A stretch of 49,222 nt of DNA from Escherichia coli (GTDB taxonomy: Bacteria > Pseudomonadota > Gammaproteobacteria > Enterobacterales > Enterobacteriaceae), in NCBI RefSeq assembly GCF_003334255.1, contig NZ_QOWU01000039.1, one strand, 5' to 3'. The notes under the pieces were generated by a model that made no database searches, was not told where the DNA came from, and was given only the letters and a program-made list of their open reading frames with translations. This document shows, piece by piece, positions 1-45,462 of the stretch (positions are counted from its first letter, which is position 1; every line of letters starts with the position of its first letter). Made by a program: the position numbers and the translations under genes.

Positions 1-77
1 AATCGGTGGAGCTGCATGACAAAGTCATCGGGCATTATCTGAACATAAAACACTATCAATAAGTTGGAGTCATTACC
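1..77 (+). mobile_element. IS1 right end (partial; window starts inside the element): 3' end of insB plus right terminal inverted repeat ending ...GTTGGAGTCATTACC
   Basis: Frame 3 of bases 3-62 translates to SVELHDKVIGHYLNIKHYQ*, the InsB C-terminus; bases ~55-77 match the IS1 terminal repeat as I recall it. Confidence 0.8.
3..62 (+). CDS. insB: IS1 transposase InsB, C-terminal fragment (5' end outside window)
   Basis: Translation SVELHDKVIGHYLNIKHYQ followed by TAA at 60-62. Confidence 0.75.
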   Translation, partial: SVELHDKVIGHYLNIKHYQ

Positions 78-1005
78 CTGCGTTCTCCACTAACGATATA
101 ACGTTGGCAATCGATAAATCGGGGTTATTGGTGTATTCACAGGAGAGCGCCATTGACGAACATCCCTGTGCGAAACGAACAGATTCGGCAAACGGCATTC
201 CGTCTACCCAACACGAAGCAAGTCCCGCCATCATGGCATCGCCCGCTCCGGTAACATTAATAACATTGGTTTTGATCGGCGCAGACCAGCCACTTTCACC
301 GCTGATATCGCTGTAATAAACGCCGTCGCCGCCCATGCTCAATACCAGTCGGTTCAGGCCATGTTGATGGAACCAGGCAGCAACTTTTGCCACATCTTCA
401 CGCCCTGACAGCGCAATCCCACTCAGGGTTTCCGCTTCAAGGCGGTTTGGCTTGAGAGTGTGGATCTGATTTAGACGGTCGCGCACTTTGACACATTTCC
501 ATGCCGAAACCGGATCGACAAATACGGGTACGTTGGCGGCATTATCCAGAATCCATGCCAGTGCCTCTTCACTGATATTACAGTCCGCGACAATGACCTT
601 TGCCCTCTGAATAAATTCACCGTGCTGTGCGAGATATTCAGCTGTAATAGCGTTGCTAATATTCATGTCATTTATAGCAACCAGCATTTCACCGGTATTA
701 TCGAGTAATGATAAATAACTCGACGTATTTTCTCCCGGCACAATCAGGCATTTATCGACATAAACGCCAGATTGATTGGTTTGCGTTAGCAGCGATTGAC
801 CATAAAAATCACTGCCTACGGCGCTCAGTAGCCAGGCTTTGTTACCCAGCAACGCCAGGTTTTGTGCAATATTGCGCCCTACTCCACCAGGCGTAAATTT
901 TATTTTACCTGGATTTGAATCCGCATAATTTAATGATTCATGTGAATATCCGGCGACATCAATATTCGCCGAACCTATAATTACGACATAATCCTTTTCG
1001 CGCAT
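73..1005 (-). CDS. psuK: Pseudouridine kinase (PfkB/ribokinase family); 310 aa here versus 313 aa recalled for K-12, 3' end replaced by IS1 sequence
   Basis: ORF track 73..1005; PfkB motifs GGVGRN and TGAGDAMMAG; N-terminus MREKDYVVIIGSANID; stop codon lies inside the IS1 repeat. Confidence 0.85.
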   Translation of the reverse strand: MREKDYVVIIGSANIDVAGYSHESLNYADSNPGKIKFTPGGVGRNIAQNLALLGNKAWLLSAVGSDFYGQSLLTQTNQSGVYVDKCLIVPGENTSSYLSLLDNTGEMLVAINDMNISNAITAEYLAQHGEFIQRAKVIVADCNISEEALAWILDNAANVPVFVDPVSAWKCVKVRDRLNQIHTLKPNRLEAETLSGIALSGREDVAKVAAWFHQHGLNRLVLSMGGDGVYYSDISGESGWSAPIKTNVINVTGAGDAMMAGLASCWVDGMPFAESVRFAQGCSSMALSCEYTNNPDLSIANVISLVENAG

Positions 1006-1072
1006 AGCACGTCCTCTGGTAAAAAATTACCAACCCTGTCAATCCACAAGAATATAGATACTGCAAAGACGG

Positions 1073-1108
1073 TTTAAACATGTGTTCATATTTAAACATG
1101 TGCTCATA
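1073..1108. repeat. Tandem 18-bp direct repeat TTTAAACATGTG(T/C)TCATA x2 in the psuK upstream region, each unit containing the palindromes TTTAAA and ACATGT
   Basis: Read directly: 1073-1090 and 1091-1108 are identical at 17 of 18 positions. Confidence 0.6.
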
Positions 1109-1242
1109 GTATGCATGTTTTACGTAAAGTAAATTACCGCCAGAGAGGCAAAATGGGCAGATTTGAGCAGGCTCACAAAATGCGATTAAATGCCTGAATT
1201 ACAAAAGCGAGGAATTTGTGACGGGATGCACAGAACAGAACA

Positions 1243-1271
1243 ATAAAAAAGGGCAGAAAATAATCTGCCCT
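1243..1271 (-). terminator. Intrinsic terminator, probably for fruBKA: stem GGGCAGA/TCTGCCC followed by a T-tract on the minus strand
   Basis: Inverted repeat 1251-1257/1265-1271 flanked by AAAAAA on the plus strand (T-run on minus). Confidence 0.55.
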
Positions 1272-1384
1272 TGAGGAAATAACCTGAGTGTTTGATGAAC
1301 GTTTGAAGTTTCTACTGAAAGATAAAACCATTTAAATTCATAAAATTACATTCACAAACCGGTCATTCTCTTTGCGCTCATCAA

Positions 1385-4074: not shown

Positions 4075-5204
4075 TATGCGCCCTCCCCAAGACCAGCAGC
4101 GATAGCGTCGCCGATTGCTTTCAGCGCCTGTTCAGCATCTGCACCCTGGGCGGTAAAGCGTAGGCGATGACCTTTCTTAACGCCAAGTGCCACAACTTTC
4201 ATCAGACTACGTCCGTTTGCCGGTTTGCCGGTACCATCAAGGTTTGTCACGGTAATATCACTGTTAAATTGTTTAATGGTATTGACCAGCATGGTACCTG
4301 GACGAGCATGCAGGCCGTGTTCATTGCGCACCACAAACTCCGCGCTTAACACGTCGTCGGTCGGCGCATCATCGCTGGTCAGCAGCGCCAGCAACGTTGC
4401 CGCATCCGCTTTCAGCAAGCGGTCAGCTTTATTGTCGAGCAATAAATCAGCGAGACGCTTAAGAACCGCGATGGGCTGATCGTCATTCATCGCCACACTC
4501 ACCAGCATGGCTGCCGTTTCGCCGTCCACATCAAAAGCATTTGCCGCACGGCTTACCGCAATCGCGCTACGCAGATTGCCTTCGGCGCTATCGCTCAGCC
4601 AGATACCCTGTCCGAGATTCAGCGGTTGTTCATTGATGGCTTTGGTGACGAAAGTGGCGTCAACTGCCCCCGCCTCTTTCAGACGCGCAGCGTTCAGCGC
4701 CTGAAGAGTCAGCAGATCGCTGGCGACGATATCCAGTGTCAGCATTTCGTTGTCGAGCTTCAGCTGCTCACTCTGCTTTTCGCCCATCAGTAATGCGCGA
4801 AGTTCTTCTGCTGTTGTTGCTGACTTCAGTTGTTCAGCAACGGAATCATCGCTCAGTACGTGGGTCAGCTGGCGTAGCAGGCCCAGATGTTCATCCGAGC
4901 TGGCAGCAATACCGATTGCCACGTACGCTACCTGACCGTCACCCCAGGTGACGCCTTCCGGGAACTGAAATACCTGAACGCCGGTTTTCAGCACCTGATC
5001 GCGGGTGTCGGTAGTGCCGTGTGGAATAGCAATACCATTGCCGAGGAACGTTGAGGTTTGCTGTTCGCGCGCCAGCATGCCATTGACGTAGCCTTCTGCT
5101 ACATTACCGGCCTGCACCAGCGCCGCAGCGACCTGGCGAATCGCCTCTTCTTTGTCTCCGGCCTTTTCGCCCGGATGGATGTCCTGTACGGATAACTGGA
5201 ACAT
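4074..5204 (-). CDS. fruB: Fructose PTS diphosphoryl transfer protein (EIIA-Fru/FPr fusion)
   Basis: 376-aa ORF; HPr-like C-terminal domain; overlaps fruK start by 1 nt. Confidence 0.95.
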
Positions 5205-6753: not shown

Positions 6754-7004
6754 GGCGCGGTCAGCATTTCCAGATCGATAAGCCAGGTCATGGCCTGCTG
6801 ACGCGAGTTACCGCACATTTCAGCGCTGGCTTGTAAGCCTGCACAGACTTTCGGTCGCAGTGGCGAGGTGAAAATTTTACAGCGTTGCTGTTCATCAAGC
6901 TGAATGCAGGGCGTATTGGCGGGCTTGCCATCTGGCATACCGGGAATAGGGCTGGAAATTGAAGGGGCAGTGCAACACGCCCCGCAACCCGGACGGCATT
7001 CCAT
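6750..7004 (-). CDS. yeiW: Small cysteine-cluster protein (UPF0153 family), 84 aa
   Basis: Internal start [11 protein letters not shown] chosen within the 128-aa ORF 6750..7136; Cys-rich; expected size 84 aa. Confidence 0.75.
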
Positions 7005-7158
7005 ACGTTGTTCTCTTAAGGTTAACCACCGGATTGATGAGCGCGCACAGTACCACCTTTTTTGCACCAGCAAAAGTGCGAATACCACTTGCCCGAAAGG
7101 CCCGTCGCGAGTACTTTGTCGCGATATTTTTGACATTTTCGACTACAGGAATTTTTCG

Positions 7159-28098: not shown

Positions 28099-30690
28099 TC
28101 AGAACGTCCAGACCACACCCGCCTGAGTATTCCACGGCGATTCTACCCCTGCGCCATTGCCATAGCTGACTGACAAATGACCGCTTAACGTCGGGGTAAA
28201 CGATGACCTTATACCAGCCTGATAAACGCCACTGGTTCCAGCCACATCATTATTAAATTTGCCATCGTCATTAACTTTCACCTGGTTAGAATCGGCGTAT
28301 TCCTGACGCACGGCCGCTTTCAGCCAGGGTTCCAGCGTCGTACCGTTTTGCAGGTCCATGTGATAGCTTACCGCCGTTCCCGCTTCAGCGCGTAATATCC
28401 GGGTATTTCCCACATCCGCGCGCATGCCGTTTGATAACGTGTAGTCCTGACCATCTGTGGTAAAGCCGGTAAAGGCCAGATAGGGTCTAACACTCCACAA
28501 TCCGTCAACCCAACGGAACCCGCTCTCAACATGAGCACCCGCGCCGTTACTATTGTAATCGCCAAACGCTGTTGCCCCATTACTCATCTTGCCATGGATG
28601 GTGTTGGCAAAACGGTCAACTTTCACCACCCCATCAACATAGGCACCGTTCTGATGCTCCCAACCGGCATAAGCCCCCAGGGTATAGCTATCGATATTAC
28701 CTTTGCCGCCGCGATCAAAACCAATATCAGAATGAGAGTAACCAAAGATCAAGCCGCAAATTGTACTGCTTTCTTCACGGGAGAAACGGCTATCGATACC
28801 GAGCGTCAGGCCCGTCAATGTTTGCTCAAAACCAGCTCCCGCATCAGTGGTCACGTTGTTGCGGGTGTTAATTGCCGAACTCCACATCGCCGTATCGTAA
28901 CTAACGCCTTTTACGCTACCAAGACGCTCACGCACGGTGTCCAGTTCTGCATCAAATACCAGCGGTTGTGCGGCCGCCATATTCAGCACATCAGTGGTTG
29001 AAGGGGTAATTTGCGCGCGATTCTCTGCCAGACTCCAGCTATGGTTGCCATTATCCAGCAAGGTATATTCATACGTACCGATATCAACAACGCCTCCGGC
29101 ATTGCCCAACGTAAATGCAGCATCACCGCCGCCCGTTGTTACCAGTGTAAGGCTATCTCCTGCTGCCGGGCTGGCACCGGTGTCCGTCACGAATATTTTG
29201 AAATCACCTGTTGCCTGACCGGTGACGTTGAGCTGATCGCTCTGATGATTAGCCATATCGGTACGCATATAAAAATTGCCGTTTCCCGACAGGGTATTGG
29301 TGGTCAACGTAATGAAATTTTCCGCACTTGCCGTCACTGATGAACGAGTCACTGGCTCATCCATCATAATCACATTTGCGTCAGACATCGCAAGGTTGGC
29401 TAAGTTGAGGAGGGTGTTTTGGTTCGTCGTAGTGATATCGGCAATGATGGTCCATACGCTATTTTCGAGCGAAACGTCCGCTTTGCTGGTATCCACGGCA
29501 CCATGCGTTCTAAAAGAAGCGCCCTCAGAAACCACTACCTTACCCACCAACATTGCGGGTGCATAATTTATTTGCGGCTTCATGACCTCAAGAATGCCAT
29601 CATTCCCTCTGACTGAAACGTTAACCATTGTGCCAGCCCAGACGTTAGCGCGGCCATTGTTGATAACCATATTTTCAGAGATGGCTTTTGAGGAATACGT
29701 GATACTTCCATTCTGATATGATCGACCGAGATCATATACCGCATTTGCCTGCACTTTCGTACCAGTATCCTTTCCCAGCGATTGCATAGTGGCATGCTTA
29801 TCAAGGATAGTATCAATGGCCTGCGTGTCCTCCATAACAATGAGCCCGGAACCATCATCCAGTTCATAATTTTTTGACACACCATCTTTTATACTAAATT
29901 GGCCTTTACTGTTTGGACCACTCACTTCCAGCGCATTCGTTGAGACAATTAATTTTCCGCCTGCTTTTTTATCAACGCCAGTTACAGTCCCGCCATCCAT
30001 AACCTCCAGTAAGCCGCCACTATCTACAGTGGTATTATAAGCGAAGTCATTTTCTTCAACTCGCAAACTTCCGCCGTTTTCCAACAACATATTATTAGCA
30101 ATACCATTCTTGATATCGAACTGACCGAGACGGTTTGTTCCGAATACCTCCATGGCCCGCGTGGTTGTTTTAATAGCACCGCCTGCTTTCTGATCTACCG
30201 CAAATGCAAATCCCCCCTCTTTAACCTCCAGTAGTCCTCCCTTTTCGATAGCGACAAAGACGGCCCCCCCATCTTTTTCAACGATTAAGCGCCCGCCTTT
30301 AATCGTGGTATCATTCGCTGCGCCATAAACCTGTAGCACACCATTATTGAGCGTAGTCTGGTTTGCCGCGCCACCCATTTGAACAATTTGATAACCGTCA
30401 TTTAATACTGAGTATTCTGCGGCGCCATTCATTTCAATGTACTGATACCCTCCGTTAATTTCAGTATTATTACTTACACCAAATTCTTTTATATGCTGTT
30501 CTCCGCCAGGATTGATTTTCGTATTATTGGCGGTCCCATAAACCAGCTGGATATCTTTTTCCAGGACAACACCATCAACTGTCTCACCATACTCAACAGT
30601 TGATGCCAATGCTATGGGTGAATATAACGCTGTAGCCACCAGAACAGATATTGCGGAACGACAAAGAGAAACAGAACCAGATTGATGCAT
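28099..30690 (-). CDS. yejO: Autotransporter (type Va) adhesin-like outer-membrane protein; intact 863-aa ORF
   Basis: N-terminal signal peptide; repetitive Gly/Asn-rich beta-helix passenger; C-terminal beta-barrel ending ...GVVWTF; lower GC than neighbours. Confidence 0.85.
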   Translation of the reverse strand: MHQSGSVSLCRSAISVLVATALYSPIALASTVEYGETVDGVVLEKDIQLVYGTANNTKINPGGEQHIKEFGVSNNTEINGGYQYIEMNGAAEYSVLNDGYQIVQMGGAANQTTLNNGVLQVYGAANDTTIKGGRLIVEKDGGAVFVAIEKGGLLEVKEGGFAFAVDQKAGGAIKTTTRAMEVFGTNRLGQFDIKNGIANNMLLENGGSLRVEENDFAYNTTVDSGGLLEVMDGGTVTGVDKKAGGKLIVSTNALEVSGPNSKGQFSIKDGVSKNYELDDGSGLIVMEDTQAIDTILDKHATMQSLGKDTGTKVQANAVYDLGRSYQNGSITYSSKAISENMVINNGRANVWAGTMVNVSVRGNDGILEVMKPQINYAPAMLVGKVVVSEGASFRTHGAVDTSKADVSLENSVWTIIADITTTNQNTLLNLANLAMSDANVIMMDEPVTRSSVTASAENFITLTTNTLSGNGNFYMRTDMANHQSDQLNVTGQATGDFKIFVTDTGASPAAGDSLTLVTTGGGDAAFTLGNAGGVVDIGTYEYTLLDNGNHSWSLAENRAQITPSTTDVLNMAAAQPLVFDAELDTVRERLGSVKGVSYDTAMWSSAINTRNNVTTDAGAGFEQTLTGLTLGIDSRFSREESSTICGLIFGYSHSDIGFDRGGKGNIDSYTLGAYAGWEHQNGAYVDGVVKVDRFANTIHGKMSNGATAFGDYNSNGAGAHVESGFRWVDGLWSVRPYLAFTGFTTDGQDYTLSNGMRADVGNTRILRAEAGTAVSYHMDLQNGTTLEPWLKAAVRQEYADSNQVKVNDDGKFNNDVAGTSGVYQAGIRSSFTPTLSGHLSVSYGNGAGVESPWNTQAGVVWTF

Positions 30691-44905: not shown

Positions 44906-45462
44906 TGCCGTGAAGTGCGGCACCCCGTAGGTCAGACAAGGCGGTCACGCCGCATCCGACATCCAACGCCCGAGCCGGTTGCCTGATGCGACGCTGGCGC
45001 GTCTTATCAGGCCTACACCGCTGTGAAGTGCTCCACCCCGTAGGTCGGATAAGGCGGTTACGCCGCATCCGACATCTAACGCCCAAGCCGGTTGCCTGAT
45101 GCGACGCTGGCGCGTCTTATCAGGCCTACACCGCTGTGAAGTGCTCCACCCCGTAGGTTGGATAAGGCGGTTACGCCGCATCCGACATCCAACGTCCGAG
45201 CCGGTTGCCTGATGCGACGCTGGCGCGTCTTATCAGGCCTACACCGCTGTGAAGTGCTCCACCCCGTAGGTCGGATAAGGCGGTTACGCCGCATCCGACA
45301 TCTAACGCCCAAGCCGGTTGCCTGATGCGACGCTGGCGCGTCTTATCAGGCCTACACCGCTGTGAAGTGCTCCACCCCGTAGGTTGGATAAGGCGGTTAC
45401 GCCGCATCCAACATCTAACGCCCGAGCCGGTTGCCTGATGCGACGCTGGCGCGTCTTATCAG
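44906..45462. repeat. Tandem array of about 4.9 copies of a ~113-bp BIME unit (each unit is two REP sequences in opposite orientation) between eco and mqo
   Basis: Units begin at 44906, 45021, 45134, 45247 and 45360; read directly; they generate five overlapping spurious 67-122-aa minus-strand ORFs. Confidence 0.85.

Follow-up and report, generated by a model that had tools for sequence, protein, structure and literature searches.

A conserved pair of dyads at the psuK promoter of Escherichia coli as a candidate operator of the kinase-like protein YeiI

Described systems of comparable design

In the ROK repressors (NagC, Mlc and the XylR of Firmicutes), an N-terminal winged helix-turn-helix (HTH) is joined to a sugar-kinase fold with the role of ligand sensor; the targets of repression are the catabolic and transport genes of the cognate sugar, and paralogues of these proteins are true kinases. 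Here we examine an 18-bp tandem repeat upstream of psuK, the first gene of the pseudouridine operon psuK-psuG-psuT, in a stretch of 49,222 nucleotides of Escherichia coli (contig NZ_QOWU01000039.1 of assembly GCF_003334255.1; hereafter the window), and consider it as the candidate operator of YeiI, a protein of similar ground plan. YeiI shares with the ROK repressors the succession of winged HTH and sugar-kinase fold. That fold is, however, of the PfkB/ribokinase type in YeiI and of the hexokinase-like ASKHA type in ROK proteins, and the operators are unrelated.

A second likeness is offered by BirA, NadR and the archaeal RbkR (a riboflavin kinase with a winged HTH), in which a pathway enzyme and a DNA-binding control domain share one polypeptide. 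The HTH-PfkB proteins of Yersinia, Pasteurella and Shewanella resemble this group, since each is encoded by the first gene of its operon, is the only operon kinase in the flanks covered, keeps the GAGD motif intact and has dyads upstream of its own gene; kinase activity is predicted for them. In Enterobacteriaceae, in contrast, the two roles are apparently split between PsuK, which has no HTH, and YeiI, which has the HTH and a GADD motif. Ligand, fold and operator also differ from those of BirA, NadR and RbkR.

With respect to the promoter, lac, malT (CRP at -70.5), deoP2 and nupG combine a weak sigma-70 promoter with a class I CRP site and a repressor site at or after the start, and the same layout is predicted for psuK. 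The psuK operator would consist of two adjacent dyads 18 bp apart, in contrast to distant looping operators; glp operators also occur as adjacent tandem sites. ARG boxes, the sites of ArgR, are likewise 18-bp imperfect palindromes found in tandem near the start site, but they follow the pattern TGAAT-N4-ATTCA with gaps of 2-3 bp (20-21 bp from centre to centre), whereas the psu dyads are spaced by 18 bp and built from (A/G)AACA and TGTT(T/C).

The tandem dyads and the genes that accompany them

The repeat is real, non-random and conserved, and is very probably a protein operator. In the orientation of the window it consists of TTTAAACATGTGTTCATA (1073-1090) followed head-to-tail by TTTAAACATGTGCTCATA (1091-1108), identical at 17 of 18 positions, and Tandem Repeats Finder returned it as a single array of period 18 with 2.0 copies, 94% matches and a score of 65. 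The only other array in the whole 49 kb is a cluster of repetitive extragenic palindromes (REP/BIME). From base composition, about 4e-5 tandem 18-bp pairs with at least 17/18 identity would be expected in the window by chance. An earlier note on this DNA had described the tandem direct repeat, placed it 70-100 bp upstream of the psuK start and reported an ATGCATG after it; the repeat finder and the array search both bear out the repeat, its distance from the ATG is 68-103 nt, and ATGCATG lies at 1111-1117.

Read in psuK orientation, the layout is ...TTTTGTGAGCCTGCTCAAATCTG...GGTAATTTACTTTACGTAAAACATGCATAC TATGAGCACATGTTTAAA TATGAACACATGTTTAAA CCGTC...AGAGGACGTGCTATG. Each 18-bp unit contains a palindrome of two 5-nt arms around 2 nt (5-N2-5), the two centres lying 18 bp apart, with the consensus rAnCA-yr-TGyTy (in its wider form, yAAACA-NN-TGTTTr). 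The internal palindrome ACATGT pointed out earlier is present, and is better described as the core of the longer dyad GA(G/A)CA-CA-TGTTT. Similarly, the proposal of tandem sites for a dimeric regulator gains support from comparative genomics but needs another register, since the true cores (Table 1) are offset from the units as first drawn. Perfect 5-N2-5 palindromes occur in E. albertii (GAACATATGTTC), Buttiauxella (AAACACATGTTT), Shewanella (CAAACATATGTTTG) and a Salmonella island (TAAACATATGTTTG), and this symmetry suits a dimeric HTH protein.

Conservation was assessed in an alignment of 12 sequences, one genome per species, comprising four Escherichia lineages, E. albertii, four Citrobacter, two Buttiauxella and a metagenome-assembled genome (MAG) of Raoultella. 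A PsuK-based search with strict peptide patterns gave 11 loci, and sampling was widened by look-ups of exact proteins. Both dyads are found upstream of psuK at the fixed spacing of 18 bp in at least six genera (Escherichia, Citrobacter, Buttiauxella, Enterobacter, the Raoultella MAG and the Salmonella island), always in the order CRP-like site, -35, -10 and then the two dyads. The alignment resolves into five conserved blocks with zero indels between them, namely TTGTGA-N6-TCA.ATCT, ATTTAC.TT, AAAACA.GC.TA..AT, rAnCA-yr-TGTTy and GAACA-yr-TG.T. The dyad cores are invariant or nearly so in all 12 sequences, and the leader from the dyads to the Shine-Dalgarno sequence defies alignment from one genus to another. 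The dyads are thus conserved above the surrounding non-coding DNA of related genomes, as seen in this alignment, in the diverged E. coli allele described below and in Enterobacter. The central dinucleotide is always pyrimidine-purine, alternating between CA, TG, CG and TA, as expected of a two-fold symmetric protein site. In Salmonella, where conservation had been suggested as a check, the dyads are kept in a rare four-gene island of yeiI and psuTGK lying between a transposase and a RelB/ParE pair, with the same layout: a CRP-like site, TTTACT, 16 nt, TACAGT and then GTAAACATATGTTTGT.

Within E. coli, psuK and the region upstream of it belong in about 22% of the complete genomes to a diverged allele resembling that of E. 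albertii, and in about 78% to the K-12-type. The example of this B2-type allele used here comes from a derivative of strain Nissle and has diverged beyond the reach of megablast. Its units, TATGAACATGTGTTTAAA and TCTGAACACGTGCTCTAA, are alike at about 12 of 18 positions and retain both dyad cores, so that the 17/18 identity is a derived trait of the K-12-type allele. From these comparisons, selection appears to act on the dyads and not on the 18-mers, and the two units may have been homogenised in the K-12-type lineage. The existence of two deep psuK alleles suggests old recombination or introgression at the locus. In the same Nissle-derived genome, nupX is present only as a fragment.

The identity of the candidate regulator comes from gene linkage. 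Two-domain homologues of the YeiI type were found in Enterobacterales, Pasteurellales, Alteromonadales, Vibrionales and Burkholderiales, and the HTH-PfkB gene adjoins psuG or psuT in all 9 contexts examined and likewise at the loci of Citrobacter and Buttiauxella. It opens an HTH-PfkB/psuG(/psuT) operon in Yersinia, Serratia, Xenorhabdus, Pasteurella, Shewanella, Aliivibrio and a Burkholderiaceae MAG. Citrobacter, Buttiauxella and Enterobacter have yeiI-nfo directly after psuK-psuG-psuT in convergent orientation, which places yeiI beside psuT; in E. coli, rihB, nupX and yeiL stand between the psu operon and yeiI (b2160), which lies about 6.5 kb from the repeat, beyond the left end of the window.

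The motif travels with this gene. A position weight matrix (PWM) trained solely on the Escherichia/Citrobacter/Buttiauxella/Raoultella alignment recovered tandem dyads, spaced by 18-19 bp and lying directly before the true start codon, in Yersinia (ACAGACACATGTTTAA / ACAAACAAGTGTCCAT), Enterobacter (ACAAACAGATGTTTGT / GCAAACATAAGCTCTA), Serratia, Pasteurella, Shewanella and Aliivibrio, and in these six taxa the pair scored above all of the 417-577 background windows per locus. Conversely, no dyads were found in three control operons (Aeromonas, a Pasteurellaceae MAG and a Bartonella sp.) which have psuK-psuG-psuT with a PsuK lacking the HTH and no HTH-PfkB gene within 6 kb; their best scores, -3.8 to 0.6 bits, are typical of background. 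The motif therefore tracks the regulator candidate and not psuG itself. In addition, Yersinia, Serratia, Xenorhabdus and the Salmonella island carry solitary, often perfect dyads (CCAAACACTTGTTTGG and similar) at 250-320 bp upstream of the psu operon start, which argues that the 5-N2-5 palindrome is the unit and acts as DNA; the combination of distal and proximal dyads hints at DNA looping. A distal solitary dyad was not seen in E. coli.

As a side observation, the annotation seems to put the starts of the HTH-PfkB genes of Yersinia and Serratia (372 aa) 27 nt too far upstream (7001-7027 of the Yersinia locus, 5001-5027 of the Serratia locus). It is the following ATG that opens the conserved N-terminus, MTSRE..., and the codons before it run across both dyads.

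YeiI itself has 362 aa, with an HTH_24 domain at residues 1-48 (E 2e-10) and a PfkB domain at 58-348 by Pfam. Its AlphaFold2 model (pLDDT 89.6, pTM 0.82) has a winged HTH (helices 3-14, 20-27 and 31-43, plus the wing) followed by a PsuK-like domain, which superposes on E. coli pseudouridine kinase with a TM-score of 0.95 and a root-mean-square deviation of about 1.9 Å. That enzyme is also the closest solved relative of YeiI, and the HTH is covered by no solved chain; a PDB sequence search and a fold search returned no solved protein with the architecture of winged HTH plus PfkB. The residues that confer pseudouridine specificity on the E. coli kinase EcPUKI, Ser30, Asn143 and Lys170 (PMC9061257), correspond to S83, N196 and K223 of YeiI and are invariant in 7 aligned sequences; among 32 homologues N196 and K223 are invariant and S83 is at least 90% conserved. 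YeiI thus appears, judging by these residues, to keep the pseudouridine ligand pocket. The GAGD motif of PfkB reads GADD in all enterobacterial YeiI examined and is kept in the single-copy HTH-kinases, which fits a YeiI specialised as a sensor after duplication. PsuK shares 60% identity with the kinase portion of the Yersinia HTH-kinase, and YeiI shares 51% with this Yersinia protein. We infer a bifunctional kinase-repressor ancestor that was duplicated, one copy losing the HTH to become PsuK and the other keeping it as the YeiI sensor.

Taken together, these observations make YeiI the probable protein on the dyads, a reading drawn from sequence and well supported by comparative genomics. Somewhat less firmly, we regard YeiI and its homologues as an undescribed class of one-component regulators in which a PfkB pseudouridine kinase carries a fused winged HTH, acting as kinase and autorepressor in one in many gamma- and beta-proteobacteria and split into PsuK and YeiI in Enterobacteriaceae, with the repeat as its operator. 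Searches of literature outside most subscription journals brought up no described function for YeiI, no operator or regulator of the psu genes, in agreement with the earlier note's remark that no psu operator was defined, and, together with the PDB sequence and fold searches, no PfkB-based regulator of the YeiI kind. Indeed, yeiI is still listed as uncharacterised in PMC9061257 (2022) and PMC12506659 (2025).

Promoter, proposed repression and its alternatives

The predicted psuK promoter (Table 1) has hexamers that match the consensus at 8 of 12 positions across a gap of 16 nt, and it was missed by the sigma-70 scan because it falls under the threshold of 9/12. Relative to the predicted start, dyad 1 extends from about -6 to +6 and dyad 2 from about +13 to +24, with centres at about +1 and +19. 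Since the dyads lie downstream of the likely -10, they would form an operator over the start site and not an upstream activator site. The position between -10 and start codon is given relative to the conserved hexamers and to a -35 up-mutation described below, the start site being predicted. The TGTGA and TCA.A parts of the CRP-like site are conserved in all the enterobacterial sequences, with no indels relative to the -35, and its centre falls at about -70.5 if transcription begins at 1099, a class I distance (class I sites are centred near -61.5, -71.5, -82.5 or -92.5). In the spacer of the promoter (1112-1127), AAAACA.GC is almost invariant across genera. The AAACA half-site within it, about 15 bp before dyad 1, may be a third, half-strength contact of the regulator, or the conservation may reflect a constraint on the spacer.

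A recurrent adaptive mutation bears on this assignment. When E. coli K-12 colonises mice, a single-nucleotide polymorphism (SNP) between psuK and fruA arises repeatedly: Frazao 2022 (PMC9509342) reported it from 5 of 7 mice, each time as A>C at NC_000913.2 2257444, with altered psuK expression and growth. The psuK/fruA intergenic SNP recurs also in old and young mice (PMC7518454), and an intergenic A>C named psuKp came up in each of three populations kept in long-term stationary phase (PMC7858067, where the main text does not state its position). Mapped from NC_000913.2 to version 3 by +1978, the mouse SNP falls at 2,259,422, which is window position 1131 (A on the plus strand). This offset was checked in two ways: the ssrA phage insertion that these papers place at 2753950 meets the ssrA/CP4-57 junction only after the same shift, and 2257444 read as a version 3 coordinate lies inside psuG. 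On the psuK strand the change turns TTTACT into TTGACT, a textbook -35 up-mutation, and thus supports the promoter assignment. As far as these elements allow, the psuK promoter is probably a weak sigma-70 promoter activated by CRP.

On balance, and with fair confidence, we favour the view that the repeat is a YeiI operator at which psuKGT is repressed until pseudouridine is present; taken by itself, a repression that pseudouridine relieves is, with moderate confidence, the likeliest mode. One YeiI dimer would bind each palindrome, so that two dimers sit side by side and cover about -6 to +24, blocking initiation by RNA polymerase. PfkB kinases dimerise through a lid (beta-clasp) that closes on the substrate, as established for ribokinase. 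In the AlphaFold2 model of YeiI, a short linker joins the HTH to the N-terminal strand of this lid region, and with lid closure on the substrate pseudouridine could therefore reorient the HTHs. For EcPUKI, a conformational change triggered by pseudouridine is reported (PMC9061257). Pseudouridine or its 5'-phosphate, held in the kinase-like domain, would alter the geometry of the dimer, reorient the HTHs and release the DNA. The operon would in this way be induced by its own substrate, with activation coming from cAMP-CRP.

If this holds, E. coli K-12 possesses a pseudouridine-inducible switch, which would explain why, in the gut, higher psu expression is reached time and again through a single -35 SNP: the SNP creates a near-consensus -35 in a weak promoter with a conserved CRP-like site and an operator. 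It would also give a function to the K-12 y-gene yeiI, provide the first operator and promoter for pseudouridine catabolism, and offer a clean case of a bifunctional enzyme-regulator split into enzyme and regulator after duplication. A protein together with a 36-bp operator would further constitute a compact, pseudouridine-specific sensor, a possible biosensor for production strains. In kind the element is an ordinary operator; its interest comes from the winged HTH-PfkB class, the function of yeiI and the famous SNP.

Several points weigh against this proposal. Evolution experiments reach higher psuK expression always by the same -35 SNP, and loss-of-function alleles of yeiI are unreported, whereas repressor knock-outs dominate for frlR, srlR, dgoR and glpR. 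This main caveat is not what a simple repressor would lead one to expect. It is possible that the operon is already induced under those circumstances, promoter strength being limiting, or that the loss of yeiI is costly. No further PWM site of at least 11 bits was found in the window or in MG1655 2,240,000-2,262,000, a range that includes nfo-yeiI, nupX, rihB and yeiL, and a second site being absent from the scanned range, there is no regulon-level support in E. coli. Xenorhabdus and the Burkholderiaceae MAG have a weak proximal PWM match, with GCCAACACTTGTTTGC visible in the latter, and the control operons were scored for an HTH-PfkB gene within 6 kb and not in the rest of the genome. The tie between YeiI and the DNA comes, moreover, from sequence comparison.

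This last point also speaks for the alternative that survives best, though it is unlikely: the dyads would serve another factor, of the DeoR/GlpR type on the central TGTTT-N6-GAACA or some other nucleoside or global regulator, and YeiI would be a mere kinase with an unrelated HTH. The central inter-unit dyad (TGTTTAAATATGAACA; TGTTTGATAGTGAACA in Citrobacter) has the form TGTT(C/T)-N6-GAACA and resembles known glp half-sites (TGTTCGATAACGAACA) and the deo operator (TGTTAGAATTCTAACA), and glpR is a frequent target in the same evolution experiments. However, the spacer of the central dyad is 6 nt in enterics and 7 nt in Shewanella and Aliivibrio, while the internal 5-N2-5 spacing is constant, so that the conserved psu unit is the 5-N2-5 palindrome and N6 is not kept in other orders; a fixed TGTTC-N6-GAACA palindrome of 16-20 bp is not what the dyads form. 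Solitary 5-N2-5 dyads also occur. Furthermore, the motif accompanies the HTH-PfkB gene through five orders and varied neighbourhoods and is absent where that gene is absent nearby, and no other regulator gene, including those of the DeoR family, is common to these loci.

Among individual candidates for the repeat, the motifs of LexA, ArgR, TyrR, NsrR, Cra, CRP, RutR, FabR, KdgR, DeoR and GlpR, compared by resemblance, do not appear to fit the spacing and the conserved positions. The reason for including LexA was the strong decrease of PsuG and PsuK in ciprofloxacin-treated recA mutants: across several clinical E. coli strains, PsuG, and in one strain also PsuK, was among the proteins most reduced, with log2 fold changes to -6 (PMC11039860). 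There is no CTGT-N8-ACAG at psuK. The co-changing GlpA, GlpT, MalK, TnaA and TdcE suggest that the drop is an effect of catabolite repression, although the supply of inducer from RNA turnover may be the cause instead.

It is improbable that YeiI binds the dyads as an activator or dual regulator and not as the repressor proposed above. The adaptive mutations, a promoter-up SNP with no loss-of-function alleles of yeiI, would agree with activation, as would the intrinsic weakness of the promoter (8/12). Yet in every lineage examined the dyads come after the -10 and before the start codon, the position of a repressor, and activators rarely work from +1 to +24.

Slightly less probable still is an action as RNA, in which a leader hairpin (UUUAAAUAUG/CAUGUUUAAA) would affect stability or translation. 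Folded from 1101 to the ATG, the K-12 leader has z = -2.4, the two units pair in an 11-bp stem, and RNAalifold predicts a hairpin across nine species. This hairpin is, however, the central inverted repeat of neighbouring half-sites, and it shows compensatory changes in 0 of 10 pairs and a covariation term of -0.22; read by eye, the K-12 stem is mostly mismatched in Citrobacter. In addition, the solitary distal dyads stand outside any leader, the hairpin is distant from the Shine-Dalgarno sequence, and an Rfam scan of 900-1500 at E <= 1 gave as its sole match a eukaryotic long non-coding RNA model (E 0.51), which is spurious.

Finally, a recent local duplication, as the earlier note had allowed, or AT-rich promoter DNA with a second promoter (TTTAAA at 1078-1073 and TATATT at 1056-1051, 16 nt apart, 9/12 matches) and no dedicated regulator, is very improbable. 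In its favour are the restriction of the 17/18 identity to the K-12-type allele and the listing of this second promoter by the scan. Against it, that identity is derived, the two-dyad structure is older than the genus and occurs in every enterobacterial genus examined as well as in other orders, so that conservation excludes a functionless duplication, the TATATT region downstream of the dyads is unconserved even between E. coli alleles, and the 2 promoter-like sites of the scan compare with a mean of 1.1 in shuffled sequence.

Coordinates and surroundings of the locus

Table 1. Features of the psuK upstream region, in window coordinates
Feature	Position	Strand	Remarks
psuK (pseudouridine kinase)	73..1005	-	first gene of psuK-psuG-psuT; ATG 1005-1003
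psuK Shine-Dalgarno AGAGGA	1012..1017	-	read from sequence; CCAG.GG.CG.GCTATG conserved in the 12-sequence alignment
2 x 18-bp tandem repeat	1073..1108	-	psuK orientation: TATGAGCACATGTTTAAA TATGAACACATGTTTAAA
Dyad 2 (16-bp PWM site)	1074..1089	-	PWM 22.2 bits; core GAACA-CA-TGTTT 1087-1076; centre 1081.5
Dyad 1 (16-bp PWM site)	1092..1107	-	PWM 20.6 bits; core GAGCA-CA-TGTTT 1105-1094; centre 1099.5
Predicted transcription start A	1099	-	7 nt after -10, +/-2 nt; about NC_000913.3 2,259,390; from hexamer positions
Predicted -10 TACTAT	1106..1111	-	TA..AT invariant in the 12-sequence alignment; final three bases are the first three of the distal unit
Predicted -35 TTTACT	1128..1133	-	TTTAC.TT invariant in the 12-sequence alignment; SNP base 1131
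CRP-like site TGTGAGCCTGCTCAAA	1162..1177	-	9/10 to TGTGA-N6-TCACA; centre 1169.5
Intrinsic terminator downstream of fruA	1249..1272	-	9-bp stem, T-run

The window is a segment of a phylogroup-A E. coli almost identical to K-12 MG1655, with 100% identity in the psuK-fruA intergenic region and 99.5-99.97% in the remainder. The end of fruA lies at 1428, and the terminator downstream of it, whose hairpin is shared by Escherichia, Buttiauxella and Enterobacter, keeps fruBKA read-through away from the psuK promoter. A second hairpin 3' of fruA (1386-1418) has GGGCAGA/TCTGCCC arms in common with that at 1249-1272 (repeats D7 and I5); only one of the two has a T-run, other genera have a single hairpin, and the roughly 140 bp that separate them may have arisen in the allele of the window by insertion or duplication.

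The left edge of the window (1-77) starts inside the right end of an IS1 (...GTTGGAGTCATTACC), whose insertion point is 1 nt upstream of the psuG ATG. The IS1 end substitutes for the final psuK codons, giving a protein that ends in ...LVENAG and not ...LVENAECLN, and the element separates psuG-psuT from the psuK promoter and the psuG ribosome-binding site. The exact IS1/psuK junction as one piece is in no complete E. coli genome of the collection; IS1 lies close to psuK/psuG in five of them.

At about 30624-30627 the window lacks the IS5K that splits yejO in MG1655, so that the strain is K-12-like and not MG1655, and yejO, an adhesin-like autotransporter gene, appears uninterrupted. The REP/BIME-like array at 44910-45462 consists of 113-bp units in tandem (4.9 copies, 95% identity) and extends from inside the 5' end of napF into the spacer between napF and eco; the array of MG1655 is longer by one unit (676 vs 563 bp).

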